A stretch of DNA of 15,596 nucleotides from Gloeobacterales cyanobacterium. GTDB taxonomy: Bacteria > Cyanobacteriota > Cyanobacteriia > Gloeobacterales > PMM-0068. Position 1 is the first letter of the stretch. Each line of letters begins with the position of its first letter. Of this stretch, positions 1,565 through 11,129 are shown in pieces. The DNA is taken from NCBI GenBank assembly GCA_038245785.1, contig JBBRSB010000049.1:1-15596 (forward strand), written 5' to 3'. The notes beneath the pieces are model-generated. The model was not told the DNA's origin. It saw only the letters and a list, made by a program, of their open reading frames with translations, and did not search any database. The position numbers and the translations under genes are program-made.

Positions 1565-1778
1565 TATCTAGTTCGCGCGCCATAATGGCACTTATTAAAA
1601 CTGATTTCCCACTGCGGGGTTGTGAAAACATTCCAGTTCCCGTTAATGCTTTATTATTGACCTTTCGTTCTTCCCCTTGTTGCCACTCGCTGCATGCCGC
1701 TATTTCTGCCCACCCTGGATTTACTGCACATCTTAGATGCCCGTTCCCTGAAAAATATTTACAATTTGAACATTTCAT
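1557..1778 (-). CDS. Small Cys-rich protein (DUF6464-like CAVNP motif), possibly truncated
   Basis: CSNCKYFSGNGHLRCAVNP...CSEW. The start overlaps the relaxase stop (ATGA, 1775-1778), suggesting coupling. The stop codon lies inside the 33-bp repeat. Confidence 0.65.
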   Translation of the reverse strand: MKCSNCKYFSGNGHLRCAVNPGWAEIAACSEWQQGEERKVNNKALTGTGMFSQPRSGKSVLISAIMARELDRD

Positions 1779-4700
1779 CGGCTTAGACCTCTGCCTTGGT
1801 TTGGTTCTTGTTTTTGCTGTTGCGCTGGGGGCTTTTCTTCTATCGATACCTTTGCTTGCAAGTGCTCGTTCCAGTCCTTCTGACGCGGCGGCATCGCACG
1901 AGATAGTAAAGGCTGTCCTTCCTTCCTTCCCTTCTTCACTACCAAGACCTCGCCACCTTCTTCCATGACCTTCCGTACATAGGGGGTGAGGACTTTATCT
2001 ACAACCCTATCTGCCGCTTGTCTAGAAGCTTTTTTCGATGACTCTGAGCCTATTTCTGTTGAGTCATACGCCACCACCAGTCTTGCTCCCTGGTCCATAG
2101 CTTCTCTAATCTGCTCCGAAGGAATGTCCCCAGAGCCATCTGTTGGTAGGTACACTCGAACGCCTTCTCGGTCTTTATCGAGCATTGCAACTGATGCAGC
2201 ATCTATGGGAGCCTCCGTCAGTACAATTTTCTTTATGACACCCTCTCCCAAAGCAAACCAGTGCCAGCCATCTGCCTTTGCTGACCCTTCTGCTAACCCT
2301 TTAAAGGTGCTTGCGTTAAAGGTCCCACGCAGATTTGCTCCTGTCACCTCACCTCTGACAAACTTACCCTCTTCAAACGTTAGTTTGTGCCTAAGCCAGA
2401 CGGCGTTCTGCTTGCTATCGGCGTACAGTAGCCCTTGGTTGTGTAGCCCATCCACCAGAATTGGTGAGAGCATCCGTTCATTTACCAGATAATCCCTAAC
2501 GGCTGGCCACTTTGAATCATTCTGGATCGGAGCGACAAATGGGGGCTTGGGCTCGGCTTTCCTAGGCTCTTCAGTGCGGCTGATCGCTGGACTCTCTACG
2601 ATTCCCTCACTTGTGCTAAACCGCTCCTTGAGCCAATCTACGGCCTCTGGATATCCAATCTCTTTGAAGTCCATCACAAAATCAATGGCACCCCCCGCCC
2701 CCTTCTGCGTGGTGTGGTTATAGAATTTCTCGCCTGTAAATGAGTACACCTGCCCATCACCACGCCATTTCTTCTTATCGAGCTTATCCCTCTCCATTCC
2801 AAGAATCTGAGCTACCTCTTCAAGCGGCTGCTCGCGTAGCTCTGCTGCCAGCCTCTTGGCCTCCTCTATTTTCTGACGCTGGTTTTCGGTCGCTCTATCA
2901 GGACGGCTCGGGGTGTTTGGGATGTTGACCACGCTATCCAGCTTGTTAGAAGCAGGTTCACTGCCAGCAGTCCCCCCAGAACCCAGGCTATCCAAGGTTT
3001 CATCCCTTGATCTCCTGAGCTGTACGATTTCCTCTTTAGGTCCGTCTGCATTGAGTCCAACTGCCTTTGCAACTGCTCGACTTGACTCTTCGAGGGGCTG
3101 TTGGTCTGCCAACTGTTGATGCTCTTGGCCCATTCCAAAATTGTCTTCTTCTCCTCGGAGGACTGCTTCTCCTGTTCTGCTTGCTTCTTGGTCATCGCCT
3201 CCAAAATTTCCTTTAGCGGTTCCAGGTCTGATTTCTGGATTACCTTGGCTAGGCTCGTTTCTGCTCCCTCCAACTGTGCTGCCTGAGTCTGTGCCAAGTT
3301 TTCCAAGCTCTCTATTTTCGCTATCGGGGCCTCCCACTTCTTGAGGGTTTCTAGCACTAATTCCATCACGGACTTCGACCCGACTATCTTCCCCAGCATC
3401 GCCGGGACTTCCGGTAATGCGCTCAACCTTTCCATCACCAAGTTCGGCGTCTTTTGCAAGGTTTTCTCCAGCGCCTGAACCTGCTTGTACACTGGGTCCA
3501 TCGCGTTCAACATGTGCTCGTATTGGCTCTGACTGCTGTTCTCGTTCAGGAACGCTAGATTGGTTCTCAGAGCTTTCAGGTCTTCCATAACGGAACCCAT
3601 TTGCTCTAATGATTTCTCGGTAGTAGTCTGATTCCCAAAGGCTTTCTCTAGCCTGCTCAACTCTTCCTGAATCGCTTTCAGACTGGCTTCCGATGTCTGG
3701 TTTTCCACTTTCTGGTTGAGGATTTTCAGGTCTGTCTTTATCGGTTTCAGGGCTATTTCCAAAGCGTTCAGCAGCTCGTCGTCCGAGGTCCCTACTAAAT
3801 CTCCATGTTCTTCGGGCTTGCTTCCGTTCATTCCGTTGGTCATGGGTTTCTTCCTTATGTATTTTTTCTTCTACGCCCACTGCCACAGGGCTTTCTACTT
3901 TCGCATCAAGCAACTCCAAAGCATTTTCATTCACACGAGAAACTTTTATTTGCACCCCTAGGGCTTGGGGTTCAGAGGCATAGATGAGAACTTCTTCTTT
4001 ACCCCGACTGACTGCTACATAGTAGGCTTCCTTTCCAATCGATAAAGCCCTGCTACTATCAGCGTCATACATCACATACTTGGCCGTTTTCCCCTGGGAA
4101 CTATATACCGTACTCACATAGTTATGGTCCGAGTGATGTAGATCTTCAGCTCTATAAACCTTGTCCCTTCCCTTAGTCGTCACTAGAAAGGAACCATCCT
4201 CTCTTAGCTCCTTGATGATAAATTCTTGACCATTCAAGACATTGAGGCGGCGGTCATTCTTTGTGAATTTACCTCTATCACCAACGGCCAGTTCAAGCCC
4301 TTCTTTCTGAAATACTTCCCGCTCCAAATGTTTTTTGACTGAGGACTGATGGTTATCACCATTTGAGTCCTGGAGCGTCAACATTCCGAGTCTACGGTCC
4401 ATCTCAGTGACTGTGTAGGACTCACTCTTTTTAAACTCAGCATAGTCTCGATTGAACTGGACTACATCCCCAACTTCGTAGTAAGCAACCTGCTTCTTTT
4501 CCCAGGAGTCAAGGTTTTTAGTTCTCAAGACTTCAATCGTTTTAGTCTCATCTCCTAGACTGCCTTCAGCTTTCAGACCCTTGCGAACCTCCTCTGTAAC
4601 TAGCTTCCGTTCAGTGTTGGTGCCAGCTAACATCAATGTCTGTTTTCTAACCTCTGGACTCCTATGCAGGTATTCATTAGCAAAGGCTGTAGTTCTCTCG

Positions 4701-6466
4701 TCCTGGTCTCTTATCTCAACGACCTTTCCATTATTTTGAAGCAGAGTATAAGAGTCCTCAATTTTTCCCTTAGCTATGAGGCTGACAACTTCTTTCAGAG
4801 ATGGGTCTTTTTGCCTCATAGACTCATCTATTATCGCTACCTTAACCTCACTCTTATTTTGCAGCAGCAGGAAGGGAGAACCCGCCTGTACTCCTGATAA
4901 CTGTTTTCCATCTCCAGTTAAAATTACTCTGCTATCTGTAGCTTCAGCTCTCTTTAAAAGTTCATCTAAATGTCGAGCGCTAGCCTGACCTGCTTCATCT
5001 AACACCAGGATTTCCCCTCTAGTAAGCTGCTCAATACTCGCCATCAGATAAGAATCTAGAGTTTGCGATGGGATACCAGACTCAGACTCTAGAATCTCAG
5101 CACTTTGGGCGCTCGGAGCGAGTCCTCTAATCTTCAGCTCTTTGGCCTCAGCTAGCTCCCTAGCTCCTGCCAGCGTATAACTCTTACCAACTCCGGCATC
5201 ACCCTGGATGATGATGATTCGGTCTTCTGTGGTGCCGATTAAGTCTAGTCCTCTTAACTGGCCCTGATTGAAAGTCTTTTCTAAAGCTATGGCTTGTACT
5301 TCAGCTCTGCTACCTATGGGATTTTGAGTACCCTTACCAGCGTTTACAACTCTTATAATTCTCTGCTCTCTGGAAACGGCCTCTTCCGTTGTCAAGCGTC
5401 CGTCAGGAGTGGAGAGAATTTGGCCTTCTGCCTTTTCTCTGGAAATCTCTTGTTCGAGCCCCTCAAGCGTATAGCTGCCCTGTGATTGCCGCAGCGATTC
5501 TTTCAGCAACTCTCTTTCATTGAAGGCCACTTCCTTATCGCCCAGTACCTCTTTTGCTCCGCCCACAATACTAGACCGTTGTCGGACTTCCTCTGCTCTT
5601 TCTAGATTTGGTCGAGGGTGGATTATTCCATTATCATCAGCTAGTTTTTTCCAATAATGATGCAGCTCTGTCCTATCAACTCGATTTACCTTCGCTTTGC
5701 GTGTCTTCTTTGCTGCAATATCCCTTCGTGCCGCACTAGCATCAGCACCAACTTCAGCGATTATGTCCTCCCTTCTAGAGCTAAACGCCTCTATTTGTTC
5801 ACGGGTATATCCAACTACTTCAAAGGTCCCATCCTTATTCCATACGGTCTGGTATCCAGTCTCATGCAGCCGCTTCGCTAGCTCATTGTGGTAAACCGCT
5901 CCTATCAACATGCTATTGCGGTAAATCTCTGTGTTGTCGATAGTCCGCCACTTCCCGGTCCTATCTATCGTCTGGTTCATCAGGATGGCATGCGTGTGCA
6001 ACTGGGGGTCTAAGTTCCTCGAAGTATCGTGTTGCCAAAGTGCTAGCTGTCCGTTTCCCGTCTTCTCAATATGGGAAACTCCATTCTCCATAATTCGAGT
6101 CTGGATGAATTCGCGCTCCATCATCCCAAGCGCTACTTTTACCGCTTCATGATGAGCTGCTATAGCCTGGACATCTCCATTCACTAAACCGATTATCGAA
6201 ACGCTCTTTGGGGCAGAAAACGTCAAGTCAACCCCTGGCCGCCTGTTTCCTTGAGCCCTAACTAAAAGCTCTCCGTCTTTCCCCTTTCCCTCTAAAGCAT
6301 TCTCGAACTGCCCCGCCTTCACTTGCCCCGTGAGCCCTTGGGTTCTTGCTCCAATTCCTACCCACTCTGAGTTTTTATACCCCTCTTCTTGGGTATAGTA
6401 GTTTTCTTCCTCATAGTATTCTTTAGCTTGAGCTGAGGACTTAAGGTTTGCTAGGTCTACTGTAAT
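1775..6466 (-). CDS. MobF (TrwC/TraI-type) relaxase-helicase with a disordered linker and C-terminal DUF3991/TOPRIM primase-like region
   Basis: DLTFSAPKSVS and HDTSRNLDPQLHTH (MobF HUH motifs); QGDAGVGKS, LDEAGQ, GDGKQL and STVYSSQGKT (SF1 helicase); GGAIDFVM, VRDYLVNERML, IVLTEAPIDAAS and VVAYD (DUF3991/TOPRIM-like). The frame stays open upstream of the track start at 6322 and encodes the catalytic tyrosines (AKEYYEEENYY). I propose the start is ATT at 6466, giving 1563 aa. The family call is firm; the exact start is inferred. Confidence 0.93.
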   Translation of the reverse strand: MTVDLANLKSSAQAKEYYEEENYYTQEEGYKNSEWVGIGARTQGLTGQVKAGQFENALEGKGKDGELLVRAQGNRRPGVDLTFSAPKSVSIIGLVNGDVQAIAAHHEAVKVALGMMEREFIQTRIMENGVSHIEKTGNGQLALWQHDTSRNLDPQLHTHAILMNQTIDRTGKWRTIDNTEIYRNSMLIGAVYHNELAKRLHETGYQTVWNKDGTFEVVGYTREQIEAFSSRREDIIAEVGADASAARRDIAAKKTRKAKVNRVDRTELHHYWKKLADDNGIIHPRPNLERAEEVRQRSSIVGGAKEVLGDKEVAFNERELLKESLRQSQGSYTLEGLEQEISREKAEGQILSTPDGRLTTEEAVSREQRIIRVVNAGKGTQNPIGSRAEVQAIALEKTFNQGQLRGLDLIGTTEDRIIIIQGDAGVGKSYTLAGARELAEAKELKIRGLAPSAQSAEILESESGIPSQTLDSYLMASIEQLTRGEILVLDEAGQASARHLDELLKRAEATDSRVILTGDGKQLSGVQAGSPFLLLQNKSEVKVAIIDESMRQKDPSLKEVVSLIAKGKIEDSYTLLQNNGKVVEIRDQDERTTAFANEYLHRSPEVRKQTLMLAGTNTERKLVTEEVRKGLKAEGSLGDETKTIEVLRTKNLDSWEKKQVAYYEVGDVVQFNRDYAEFKKSESYTVTEMDRRLGMLTLQDSNGDNHQSSVKKHLEREVFQKEGLELAVGDRGKFTKNDRRLNVLNGQEFIIKELREDGSFLVTTKGRDKVYRAEDLHHSDHNYVSTVYSSQGKTAKYVMYDADSSRALSIGKEAYYVAVSRGKEEVLIYASEPQALGVQIKVSRVNENALELLDAKVESPVAVGVEEKIHKEETHDQRNERKQARRTWRFSRDLGRRAAERFGNSPETDKDRPENPQPESGKPDIGSQSESDSGRVEQARESLWESDYYREIIRANGFRYGRPESSENQSSVPEREQQSEPIRAHVERDGPSVQAGSGAGENLAKDAELGDGKVERITGSPGDAGEDSRVEVRDGISARNPQEVGGPDSENRELGKLGTDSGSTVGGSRNEPSQGNPEIRPGTAKGNFGGDDQEASRTGEAVLRGEEDNFGMGQEHQQLADQQPLEESSRAVAKAVGLNADGPKEEIVQLRRSRDETLDSLGSGGTAGSEPASNKLDSVVNIPNTPSRPDRATENQRQKIEEAKRLAAELREQPLEEVAQILGMERDKLDKKKWRGDGQVYSFTGEKFYNHTTQKGAGGAIDFVMDFKEIGYPEAVDWLKERFSTSEGIVESPAISRTEEPRKAEPKPPFVAPIQNDSKWPAVRDYLVNERMLSPILVDGLHNQGLLYADSKQNAVWLRHKLTFEEGKFVRGEVTGANLRGTFNASTFKGLAEGSAKADGWHWFALGEGVIKKIVLTEAPIDAASVAMLDKDREGVRVYLPTDGSGDIPSEQIREAMDQGARLVVAYDSTEIGSESSKKASRQAADRVVDKVLTPYVRKVMEEGGEVLVVKKGRKEGQPLLSRAMPPRQKDWNEHLQAKVSIEEKPPAQQQKQEPNQGRGLSR
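2866..3843 (-). CDS. Nested +1-frame gene inside the relaxase: coiled-coil protein with a C-terminal membrane anchor (MobB/MbeB-like role proposed)
   Basis: 325 stop-free codons. AAGGA lies 8 nt before the ATG. The sequence is L/E/K/Q-rich and helical throughout and has one hydrophobic segment, WIAWVLGGLLAVNLLLTSWIAW. It coincides with the low-complexity linker of the host frame. Confidence 0.82.
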   Translation of the reverse strand: MTNGMNGSKPEEHGDLVGTSDDELLNALEIALKPIKTDLKILNQKVENQTSEASLKAIQEELSRLEKAFGNQTTTEKSLEQMGSVMEDLKALRTNLAFLNENSSQSQYEHMLNAMDPVYKQVQALEKTLQKTPNLVMERLSALPEVPAMLGKIVGSKSVMELVLETLKKWEAPIAKIESLENLAQTQAAQLEGAETSLAKVIQKSDLEPLKEILEAMTKKQAEQEKQSSEEKKTILEWAKSINSWQTNSPSKSQVEQLQRQLDSMQTDLKRKSYSSGDQGMKPWIAWVLGGLLAVNLLLTSWIAWSTSQTPRAVLIERPKTSVRK

Positions 6467-6541
6467 GCCTGTAACCCTTATGGTGGCTTGTACACGGTTT
6501 AAGAATAACGTTCAAAACCCGCTCTTGGGCTAAGCATATAC

Positions 6542-6570
6542 CAAAACAGAGTTTTGCGTACGGTGTCGCC
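6542..6570 (+). other. oriT: oriT nic site (MobF type), predicted nick between 6566 and 6567
   Basis: CAAAAC-AGA-GTTTTG hairpin followed by CGTACGGTGT^CG, paralleling the F-plasmid site GCAAAAAC-TT-GTTTTTGC-GTGGGGTGT^GG. It lies about 100 bp upstream of the proposed relaxase start. Confidence 0.8.
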
Positions 6571-6577
6571 TAAATAT

Positions 6578-6692
6578 TCAGTCTTCCAACCGCACAATTA
6601 GAGGGTATATCGCTGACAAGCGATGGCGTCCCATAAAACCCCCGCCAGGGGGTTCTTCCCTGGGTTCCTGGGGCGTGTGGTTGGAAGAGTGA
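6578..6692. other. Multi-branched stem-loop immediately 3' of the predicted nic
   Basis: Outer stem TCTTCCAACCGCAC (6582-6595) / GTGTGGTTGGAAGA (6675-6688). It encloses ATCGCT-GACA-AGCGAT (6609-6624) and AACCCCC-GCCA-GGGGGTT (6637-6654). Confidence 0.6.
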
Positions 6693-6728
6693 CATACTTG
6701 TTTTCCTTAGGGCTTGTGGTTGTGTAGT

Positions 6729-6760
6729 GTGTCCGGCAGGCGATAGCCGAGAGAGGCTAT
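6729..6760 (+). repeat. Dispersed motif, copy 1
   Basis: GTGTCCGGCAGGCG followed by the hairpin ATAGCC-GAGAGA-GGCTAT. Confidence 0.75.
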
Positions 6761-6821
6761 GAGCGCAATGGTCTGCCTATTTTGTTTGGCATGATGTAAA
6801 AATAGAAATGATGAGCAGAGG

Positions 6822-8021
6822 CTAGGTGCTTCCATATTGCTTTATGAGGAGCTGTAGACCACCTATCGAAATGCCGGACTTTTCGCAGGCTTCATTTAAG
6901 TTTTTAGACTCCACCAGTGAATTGATGAGAACTCCCAGTTTTTCCCGCGTTCTCCCCTTGTCCAGTTTGTAGACATTTGTATTAAGACTAAGGAGTTTAG
7001 TAGCAGGAATAGAGGTTCCATCCTCTAGAGGAATCTGAATAGTTTTCAAGATTTTCTCCGGCGAGGGTTGGGCTGAAATAGCTGCTTCAGGTGCAGGTAT
7101 ATTGCTTTGCAGTGTGGGGTCAACTCCCTGGCCCTGGGGGTTCCCCTGGGATGATTTTAAAGAATCTATTTGGGCTATGAGCTTATCTGCTTCTTCGTCT
7201 TTAGCTATATTCTGCCCCTCGGTACTAAGGGGCACTGCTAGCCTTTGGGTTGCGGCCTGGACGTTGGTATTTGGTGATTGGTCTCTTTGCTCTGTTCTCG
7301 CCGCCAAGGACCCTGATTTCTGTGTTGGTGCTGGTAGGGTAGGTACTTGCTCTGGTTGAAGATTTCTGGAGAGTTTTTGCGGGTAAGTACCCGTCGCCGA
7401 TGGAGGTAAAGGCAAAATTCCTAGAGGTTGGACAGGCTTAGAAAACGTAGGCATACCCTTCTCTGCTAGAGTGCTATTCGGATTACTCCCCTGTGGTGTC
7501 AAGATTTTTTGAGAGGGGATTGATGAGTTTGTCTCGACAGTAACTTTTTGTGCAGAATTCTCAGTCTTTTTCTGACTGCTAGATTGTGGCTGTTGCACCG
7601 CCTGTTGAGTTGTTGAAGGTGCTGGAGCTGGTGTAGAATTCTGCGCAACTCGCTCTCTAACAATTTCTCTGACTATGGTTTGCCTTGGCTGGAGATTATA
7701 TCCAATCAAACCACCTACTAAACCCATAGCAGAAACTCCGAGCACAAATCCGATGGGTACCTGCTTTTTAAACATTTTCTCTAAAATAGGTTCAGGCTTA
7801 ATAGTTGTTCTCTTTTGCCCAGGTTCGTAAATCGTGATGCTGCTCTTCGCTTTTGATATCTTTATGTAGGCATCCCCTATGTCCAAAAAATTCTCTAGAT
7901 CATTCTCTTCTTCAAAGTGTTTGCTGCATAATCTTATATATGATTGTTTGACTTCATCCATGCTGGTATCAGAGTCAACACCCAAGATTTCATACGGGTC
8001 TTTACTAGGCATTATCATCAT
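6822..8021 (-). CDS. Membrane protein with a degenerate N-terminal J (DnaJ-like) domain
   Basis: KDPYEILGV...DEVKQSYIRL...F..I..AY..I matches a J domain but has HFE where HPD is expected. One TM segment (IGFVLGVSAMGLVGGLIGY), a long P/Q/S/T linker and a small C-terminal domain follow. A GAGGAG Shine-Dalgarno precedes the clustered ATGs, and the true start may be the second or third Met. Confidence 0.75.
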   Translation of the reverse strand: MMIMPSKDPYEILGVDSDTSMDEVKQSYIRLCSKHFEEENDLENFLDIGDAYIKISKAKSSITIYEPGQKRTTIKPEPILEKMFKKQVPIGFVLGVSAMGLVGGLIGYNLQPRQTIVREIVRERVAQNSTPAPAPSTTQQAVQQPQSSSQKKTENSAQKVTVETNSSIPSQKILTPQGSNPNSTLAEKGMPTFSKPVQPLGILPLPPSATGTYPQKLSRNLQPEQVPTLPAPTQKSGSLAARTEQRDQSPNTNVQAATQRLAVPLSTEGQNIAKDEEADKLIAQIDSLKSSQGNPQGQGVDPTLQSNIPAPEAAISAQPSPEKILKTIQIPLEDGTSIPATKLLSLNTNVYKLDKGRTREKLGVLINSLVESKNLNEACEKSGISIGGLQLLIKQYGST

Positions 8022-10169: not shown

Positions 10170-11129
10170 CTCTGCTTCACTTGATCTTTAGGGACACCTA
10201 CAGAATCAACATAACCACAGCTTTTACAAGTAAACTTTGATATGAAATCGAAAGGAAGTTCCAGCTTCCAATCTTTACTTAATCCTAATTTCTCTGCCAC
10301 TTGGTTTGGCGTATGCTCTAAAGTGAACTTAGGAAGTTCTGAATCTTGACAATCTGGAATTGAGTAGTGATCGGGGCATTCGCTATCCAAGCTATACTCT
10401 ACTCTACTGTGCGAAATCCAACTGGTTGGTTTACTGGCAGAACTAATTGTGTTCCCGGCTTAGCATTACTATTGTCTAGCAAAATCTGAACAAGTATTTC
10501 ACTTTGATAAGCAGCAACAATAGCAGCTGTCATAATTGTTGTCGCTAGTTTTGGTTCCTCATAGTTATCTTTCAGAAGTCCGCATGAATAACTTTCATTG
10601 AATCGCTCCCATGCTGATGTGTCCATCTTGCATCGATAGCAAGCGGTGTCAGGAACTCTGGGATCAAAGAGAGCCACATTCCCTGAATAGTGATTGATAC
10701 CACCGTCTATCCAAGGAACGCCAACGGAGTAGCATATCTTATTAAGAAGTCGCCTTGCTCTCACACTATCTAGGCAGCCTAGAACTACATCCATTTCACT
10801 GAGTAAACCACGACCAAAATCTGTTTCTAATTTCCCAATCACTGGGTGTATATGAATATCTGGGTTGAGTTCTTTGAGGCGTTGAGTAGCAACCTCAGCC
10901 TTAGATCTACCAATGTCAGATTCTCTAAATAGTACAGACCGCGTCAGATTATGAATTTCAATGGTGTCGTAGTCAACGACCCAGATATTCCCAATTCCAA
11001 GCAGTGCAAGATTTTGAGCACCTCATTTCCTAGTGCTCCGCACCCCACAACAGCGACTCTCGCTTCCGCTAGTCTTTCCTGTTTCCAGTTTGGGATGAGG
11101 CTATGTCGGGCATAACGTTCTTGAGACAT
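10127..11129 (-). pseudogene. ThiF/MoeB/E1-like adenylyltransferase, two frameshifts and probably 3'-truncated
   Basis: Three track ORFs join into one frame after adding one A in the run at 11012-11015 and removing a 5-bp tandem duplication at 10395-10404. The result reads VVGCGALGNEVLKNLALLGIG..VVDYDTIEIHNLTRSVLF..GCLDS..ACYRC..YSCGLL..CPDH..CKSC..TCP (332 aa). Confidence 0.9.

Follow-up and report, generated by a model that had tools for sequence, protein, structure and literature searches.

On the minus strand of a 15,596-nucleotide contig from a Gloeobacterales cyanobacterium (contig JBBRSB010000049.1 of assembly GCA_038245785.1, our G000:C49; the entire 15.6-kb contig is called the window below, and the assembly totals 5.0 Mb) lies a gene for a MobF-type relaxase fused to a helicase and a primase. 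Inside the linker that joins helicase to primase there is a second open reading frame (ORF), on the same strand and in the +1 frame, and this is probably a real, selected gene overprinted on the relaxase gene, a reading to which we give a probability of about 0.8. The role proposed for its product, that of a relaxosome accessory that would localise the relaxase at the membrane or at a coupling protein, is drawn from analogy with known systems and is offered tentatively.

The inner gene (product P0002) occupies 2866..3843 on the minus strand, with 325 codons from its ATG plus a stop, and is contained wholly within the outer ORF (1775..6322, minus strand; product P0001). It is in the +1 frame because its start lies 2479 nt into the outer ORF. 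A first-pass annotation of this DNA had described two same-strand frames open together for 978 bp, the inner one with its own AAGGA-N8-ATG and with a hydrophobic helix at its C-terminus, and in each of these respects it was correct. Neither ORF has an internal stop; an AAGGA Shine-Dalgarno-like motif stands at 3852..3856 (minus strand), 8 nt before the inner ATG (3843-3841); and inner residues 285-303 (2935..2991, minus strand) form a predicted transmembrane helix with a 19-residue Kyte-Doolittle mean of 1.91. The protein as a whole is rich in L, E, K, S, A and Q, and this helix, which is followed by a basic tail, is its single hydrophobic segment. The inner ATG spans the outer codons CAT GAC, and therefore a change of CAT to CAC is silent in the outer frame, as had also been stated.

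The common strand and the +1 offset are equally those that a programmed +1 ribosomal frameshift would use, in which case the product would be a relaxase-helicase isoform with a coiled-coil, membrane-anchor tail; in the distant fusion L006 (described below) and in the protein P0015, coiled-coil sequence is in frame with the primase. This explanation is very improbable, since the inner frame opens just 9 codons ahead of its ATG (334 against 325 residues), the Shine-Dalgarno motif is at the right distance from that ATG, and an M-T N-terminus is common to P0002 and its relatives P0003 and P0004, which are all three of the family members that reach the N-terminus.

The outer ORF, read from GTG to stop, encodes 1515 residues with Pfam matches to TrwC, AAA_30, DUF3991 and Toprim_2. 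It belongs to MobF by the NCBIfam model NF041492 (229 bits, cut-off 100) and scores 228 bits against the TrwC profile PF08751 (cut-off 25); a C-terminal superfamily 1 (SF1) helicase is recognised by AAA_30 (144 bits), and the TIGR02760 TraI model gives 420 bits, which is under that model's full-length cut-off. All on the minus strand, the TrwC-type relaxase domain lies at 5636..6433 (PF08751, 266.8 bits, profile positions 2-284, when the 5' extension discussed below is included); the SF1 helicase region, residues 351-790, lies at 3953..5272, with AAA_30 above its cut-off at 351-537 and TraI_2B (601-677) and UvrD_C_2 (735-780) both under the Pfam cut-off; DUF3991, residues 1278-1349, lies at 2276..2491 (PF13154, 43.1 bits, cut-off 24.5); and Toprim_2, residues 1367-1442, lies at 1997..2224 (PF13155, 24.3 bits, cut-off 22.1). 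Residues 827-1153 (2864..3844, minus strand) make up the linker, which is fast-evolving and indel-rich. Its composition (E 11.9, G 11.9, R 10.7, S 10.4, D 7.3 and P 6.4 %) agrees with the G/R/E/S/P-rich character first ascribed to it, and with a top 19-residue Kyte-Doolittle mean of 0.13 it has no hydrophobic stretch. The inner gene begins at outer residue 827, past the last helicase match (735-780), as had been noted. The companion statement, that it stops just before the DUF3991/TOPRIM region, is right in one sense only: the inner gene ends at about outer residue 1153, which is where the conserved C-terminal module starts, and this is some 125 residues before the Pfam DUF3991 match itself.

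It is clear that both frames are open beyond chance. Within the 978 bp of overlap no stop interrupts the outer frame, and the inner frame contains its terminal stop alone, against 38 stops in the remaining sense frame and 7, 7 and 16 in the three antisense frames. The longest open +1 run is 335 codons at the overlap and 51 elsewhere in the outer gene. Synonymous codons were resampled by genome codon usage, 20000 times, with one of the two proteins held fixed. Fixing the inner protein led to an expectation of 21.0 stops in the outer frame, where 0 are seen, and 0/20000 resamples were stop-free; when it was the outer protein that was fixed, the inner frame was expected to have 6.6 stops, again with 0 seen, and 5/20000 resamples lacked stops. 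Since stop-free resamples were rare or never obtained, each frame is held open against the coding needs of the other. GC content by codon position in the overlap is 0.51/0.36/0.65 for the inner frame and 0.65/0.51/0.36 for the outer frame; in the remainder of the outer gene it is 0.59/0.39/0.46. The smaller of the two expected stop counts leaves some room for the suggestion that the inner frame is no gene at all and arose as an untranslated by-product of a G/R/E/S-rich linker that happens to be stop-poor in +1; against this, just 5 of the 20000 resamples reproduced such an open frame, and the relatives bear on the same question.

Four relatives of the inner protein, P0003-P0006, were found in a search of 5.8 billion clusters (E 6e-42 to 2e-112; 225-419 residues). 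Each had been called as a separate gene on a short contig of 1.5-3.2 kb, and each is 50-64% identical to P0002 over aligned columns. All five inner sequences share the motifs MLGKI(I/V)GSKSVME and WQTNSPSK, the hydrophobic helix (Kyte-Doolittle mean 1.87-2.19 in 5/5 members) and a PKTS-x-R-(K/R) end. Among 1.84 billion representatives searched with a profile, only the members of the inner family and one weak 130-residue match came up, and there is therefore no fused or longer inner form among those representatives. P0003 and P0004 carry a 56-residue tandem duplication of an ALKPI...QKVENQTS...LKAIQEE unit, and in the linker of P0010, an outer relative, the corresponding position carries an insert of 63 residues; taken together, these indicate that duplication is tolerated in both frames.

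The full-length outer relatives P0009, P0010 and P0011 (1495-1570 residues) cover the whole linker. They are 72-79% identical to the outer protein in the relaxase and helicase and 63-66% in the primase part; in the overlap linker identity is 42-53%, with 44-108 gap columns. The fused frame is nevertheless open in 4/4 full-length members of the family while the linker sequence drifts. This has a direct bearing on whether the fusion is real, for it could be argued that there are three genes here, relaxase-helicase, coiled-coil and primase, and that the open outer frame is either an error or unselected. Stand-alone DUF3991-Toprim proteins are indeed known (P0015, of 871 residues, and many open frames of about 600 residues), P0017 is a relaxase-helicase lacking the primase, and the outer linker does resemble an off-frame translation. 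Such an arrangement is nonetheless very improbable: it does not account for the 21 missing stops in the outer frame, nor for a frame that stays open in all four proteins through so much divergence and so many indels. Furthermore, the outer frame has no ATG, GTG or TTG for about 23 codons after the inner stop, and where its first Met beyond that stop stands, at residue 1176, each of the 3 relatives has Leu. A second assembly, the Logan contig of the sole run with the sequence, is identical over 1700-6600 (word depth 61.5), which also speaks against an error; that run is probably the source of our contig, so the identity checks the assembler and not independent reads.

The first-pass annotation had looked to conservation among relatives as a check, and support came both from the four inner relatives and from a comparison of inner with outer relatives. 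For the latter we asked whether one DNA could encode an outer and an inner relative at +1 offset, counting inner residues in feasible runs of at least 10. The control pair P0001/P0002 gave 325/325; P0011/P0005 gave 199/290, P0009/P0003 206/414 and P0010/P0004 180/419. Controls with reversed sequence, run for each of the nine pairs tested, yielded 0 to 11 residues. The feasible runs are far above these controls, and the fused relaxase genes therefore carry coding potential for the inner family along their linkers. A model of selection on the outer frame alone, which assumes saturated synonymous sites, gave the relatives +1 translations that had 9-10 stops and shared only 21-24% identity with P0002 (32% at most over 2000 runs), well below the 50-64% of the real inner relatives. 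Such frames, open for 225-419 residues at that level of identity, are not what a by-product of the linker would be expected to leave, and neither is the conservation of start, motifs, hydrophobic helix and stop position, nor the choice of the inner frame by gene callers on all four short contigs.

DNA-level evidence comes from sister elements. Three Chroococcidiopsidaceae metagenome-assembled genomes (MAGs; loci L006, L009 and L010), picked out by a pattern scan of species genomes, encode distant TrwC-helicase-DUF3854-DUF3991 fusions, each with same-strand +1 ORFs in low-complexity linker sequence. The ORF at 1929-2378 of L006 and its L010 counterpart are 86% identical to each other; that at 3960-4553 of L009 (22-23% identity) joins the L006/L010 family by shared motifs only; and a second L009 ORF, at 6360-7004, ends exactly at the start of the primase module. 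The three sister nested ORFs tested all pass the resampling test: none of 5000 resamples left the outer frame stop-free, and the inner frame was stop-free in a fraction of 0.0002 to 0.0034. L006 and L010 are 84% identical in nucleotide sequence; counted by outer codon position, they differ at 21/12/10 sites in the nested ORF and at 115/80/304 sites in the domains (chi-square p = 8e-6). Substitutions are also rarer in the nested ORF, at a rate of 0.096, than in the domains, at 0.161, and synonymous/non-synonymous counts are 20/23 for the nested frame and 9/34 for the outer frame. Substitutions thus follow the wobble position of the nested frame, which shows selection on that frame at the level of DNA. 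Three more members of the L006/L010/L009 nested family were called on short contigs. With selection of this kind in sister families added to the evidence from the relatives, we consider it very unlikely that the inner frame of the window is a by-product of its linker.

The sister genes resemble that of P0002 in being on the same strand, in +1, within the low-complexity linkers of cyanobacterial relaxase-primase fusions, coiled-coil-like in sequence, and begun by an ATG that straddles an outer His codon and the one after it (CAT GAx). They differ in their size (149-214 residues), in being placed after an extra DUF3854 domain, and in having no hydrophobic stretch by eye, a judgement made without a hydropathy scan. 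Homology with P0002 was rejected (hhalign probability 0.5%), and the layout therefore recurs with different inner proteins. The relaxase-primase frame of L010 (JAUJND010000069.1) shows indels of 4, 4, 2, 5 and 1 nt relative to L006 and falls into three open frames, and L010 is in this respect either a decaying copy or the product of MAG assembly errors; its nested ORF is intact.

A further nested ORF was seen in giant helicase-DUF3991/Toprim proteins of 1987-2588 residues (loci L041-L048 and L050; genomes G510, G602, G550, G447, G680, G637, G021, G461 and G589). It is a conserved +1 ORF of 156-240 residues with an ATG start, at a nucleotide offset of about 750-1500, and its members share motifs including YPxIWxP and LEEWL. 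When L045 is compared with L046, the nested region has 41/19/14 differences at the three outer codon positions and the sequence downstream has 259/146/836 (p = 1.7e-16), and outer identity drops to 0.70. This is a second, unrelated overprinted gene. A Pfam scan of 3 of the 13 loci retrieved (L043, L051 and L053) found strawberry-notch-type heads and no TrwC, and the 13 were dropped as relaxase comparators. The L043 frame appears to correspond to P0016 (2406 residues), entered at its source as one protein.

Four non-homologous nested +1 genes are thus at hand: the P0002 family, the L006/L010/L009 family, the second ORF of L009, and that of the giant strawberry-notch-type helicase-primase gene. 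Nested-frame selection in DNA was seen in both cases where it was testable (L006/L010 and L045/L046). The occurrence of non-homologous nested genes in related elements suggests that the layout has evolved more than once. For the same reason the first-pass description of the system as convergently built fits; its alternative, that the system is module-swapped, found no support.

Several observations weigh against a selected inner gene with the role proposed for it, and some of them bear on the comparison of relatives itself. That comparison is indirect, because the inner and outer relatives sit on different contigs. A protein-level proxy, the fraction of outer substitutions compatible with a change at the first codon position, came to 0.39-0.52 for the linker and 0.40-0.52 for the domains, and the codon-position bias that it stands for was not significant (Fisher p 0.26 to 1), a point for the by-product explanation. 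No DNA of a close relative came from an inner-family search of genome, metagenome and viral contigs or from a primase-module search of metagenome contigs, a tblastn search of plasmids with P0002 was empty, and when 61 relatives and 401 genomes of the phylum were searched in all six frames, only the source assembly gave a real match. Weak six-frame matches (E 3e-5 to 6e-4) were treated as noise, two of them having internal stops and two further ones covering a short part only, inside other long open frames. AlphaFold2, given a 5-row alignment, predicts an all-helical inner protein with a mean pLDDT (predicted local distance difference test) of 38, which is very low and is again a point for the by-product explanation. 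The hydrophobic helix has basic residues on both sides, making its topology ambiguous. A scan for promoters and terminators found 4 and 5 sites against 4.8 and 5.7 expected, none of them near the inner start, and a look-up of sequencing runs listed one DNA run with the sequence and no RNA run. P0002 and its family match no family in Pfam or NCBIfam that would give a function; in PDB and PHROGs the inner protein has weak matches of coiled-coil type only; and in the ESM Atlas the best score was 0.86, to unnamed clusters, with recognition below the mark. The relaxase lacks a canonical start codon, which leaves some room for a decaying gene. Finally, P0012 is 72% identical over the relaxase and helicase and passes into the DUF3991 region within about 50 residues; as it has neither the linker nor the inner gene, the module is accessory and not needed by the enzyme core.

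The missing start codon deserves comment. An in-frame 5' extension of the outer frame (6323..6511, minus strand) encodes the relaxase N-terminus with its YY...YY tyrosines and contains no ATG, GTG or TTG; when it is added the TrwC score rises from 228 to 267 bits and the profile is matched from position 2. The outer frame contains YY-x4-YY and HD...HTH, which we take to be the N-terminal catalytic tyrosine pairs and the histidine triad of MobF, and the tyrosines lie 5' of the first ATG, GTG or TTG. They can therefore be part of the protein only with an odd start codon, for which the candidates are ATT at 6466-6464, with AAGGG 8 nt before it, or ATA at 6481-6479. P0009-P0011 were likewise called with late starts, and an odd start codon may thus be a trait of the family.

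On the preferred reading, that of a selected overprinted gene, a single mRNA would carry the relaxase-helicase-primase frame through its low-complexity linker of about 330 codons and, overprinted on that linker, a separate +1 gene started at its own AAGGA-N8-ATG by internal initiation of translation. The inner product would be a mostly helical, coiled-coil-like protein of 325 residues whose hydrophobic helix near the C-terminus may insert into the membrane. Most of the amino-acid constraint in the overlap would fall on the inner frame, and the outer frame would be kept stop-free so that helicase and primase stay joined, while its sequence drifts and takes indels. What the inner protein might do is suggested by known nested genes: by analogy with MobB and TraH, it may hold the relaxase at the membrane or at a coupling protein.

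MobB is membrane-associated and is needed for the transport signals of its relaxase, and P0002 and its longer relatives (325-419 residues) are more than twice the length of MobB. In ColE1, mbeB and mbeD overlap or lie inside mbeA; they differ from the inner gene here in the relaxase family concerned, in their much smaller proteins and in belonging to enterobacterial plasmids. The precedent of mobB, to which the first-pass annotation had appealed, was confirmed: in RSF1010/R1162, mobB is within mobA/repB, on the same strand but in a frame of its own, and separates the coding regions of relaxase and primase (PMC2200642; PMC5572225). Like the gene of P0002, it is wholly inside a relaxase-primase fusion gene. 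The RSF1010 relaxase is MobQ, whereas that of our contig is MobF with an SF1 helicase, and its primase is RepB', in place of which the contig has DUF3991/Toprim; no separately started primase is evident here. TraH of RP4 is described as an acidic protein, encoded in another frame within traI, that stabilises TraJ-TraI at oriT (PMC7314908), and its gene is like that of P0002 in lying in a different frame inside a relaxase gene; no membrane anchor appears in that description (PMC7314908). TraI of RP4 is a MobP protein with no helicase or primase fusion, unlike the outer protein here. In ColE1-type plasmids MbeB belongs to the relaxosome, and a function in entry exclusion is putatively assigned to MbeD (PMC5935869).

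The inner gene may be real and overprinted and still have some other role, in entry exclusion, in partition or replication with the primase, or as a membrane anchor unrelated to transfer; this is possible but on the doubtful side. The designation of MbeD lends it some weight, as do the position of the inner gene, which abuts the primase module and not the relaxase domain, the retention of relaxase and helicase in P0012, and the gene content of the window, with its resolvase, HigB toxin gene and nucleases and no transfer apparatus. No sequence relation to a known accessory protein was found in Pfam, NCBIfam, PHROGs or PDB, a comparison that did not include the MobB and TraH sequences themselves. 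In the other direction, the nested genes whose roles are described in the papers cited, traH and mbeB, act on the relaxosome (PMC7314908; PMC5935869), the inner gene is by its position co-transcribed with the relaxase gene, and a coupling-protein gene is present elsewhere in the assembly: there is one, on a different contig (G000:C12:4806-6005, PF02534, 88 bits). The outer protein is the sole TrwC relaxase of the assembly.

Two leads to function were weak. DUF7902 was weakly matched by 3/5 members of the inner family (best E 1.5e-4). The DUF6753 protein of plasmid pGLO7428.03 is a language-model look-alike of P0002 at 0.84; like P0002 it is helical (278 residues) with a hydrophobic helix near its C-terminus, and its gene adjoins mobD and a MobV relaxase-primase gene with the same DUF3991/Toprim module, but unlike the gene of P0002 it is stand-alone and not nested. 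Homology with DUF6753 (PF20538) was rejected, at an hhalign probability of 0.1% against the pGLO7428.03 member and with no PF20538 match in 5/5 inner members at E up to 10. In pGLO7428.03 (L054, NC_019759.1), L055, L056 and 79 other plasmid records, DUF3991/Toprim is often the C-terminal part of genes annotated as MobV relaxases, which encode about 585-600 residues and have short linkers. Since the module occurs on so many MobV genes, relaxase-primase fusion is common on cyanobacterial plasmids, with varied relaxase heads.

The other genes of the window encode a resolvase, a HigB toxin, a DnaJ-domain membrane protein, DUF5710 and DUF7706 proteins, ThiF fragments and a PD-(D/E)XK nuclease, and together they suggest that the element is plasmid-like and has no transfer apparatus of its own. 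The ThiF fragments, at 10399-11129 (minus strand), are adjacent ORFs of 147 and 61 residues with partial ThiF profile matches (positions 106-208 and 8-43) and look like a split or decayed E1-like gene.

Nested accessory genes in relaxases are textbook matter for RSF1010 and RP4, both small proteobacterial cases. What is new here is that the layout occurs in another phylum and in a MobF protein that also comprises a helicase and a DUF3991/Toprim primase; in the literature covered, which takes in few subscription journals, no nested gene has been reported for a MobF relaxase or for cyanobacterial relaxase-primase genes. At 325-419 codons the inner gene is, in our judgement, long for a same-strand bacterial overlap. 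Routine annotation misses it: gene callers have picked up the inner frame on short contigs only, those that truncate the long outer frame. Because the layout has apparently evolved repeatedly, the low-complexity linkers of large plasmid proteins are a place to look for unannotated genes. With a likelihood that we put a little short of even, overprinting on disordered linkers may have served cyanobacterial plasmids and conjugative elements repeatedly as a means of packing additional genes into those of their very large multi-domain proteins of transfer and replication, and P0002 would then be the first membrane-anchored relaxosome partner of MobF-type elements in cyanobacteria. The silent change in the outer frame that removes the inner start offers a clean genetic handle on this gene, and a membrane-anchored partner of the relaxase, if that is what P0002 is, would be a useful handle on the little-known transfer of cyanobacterial plasmids.

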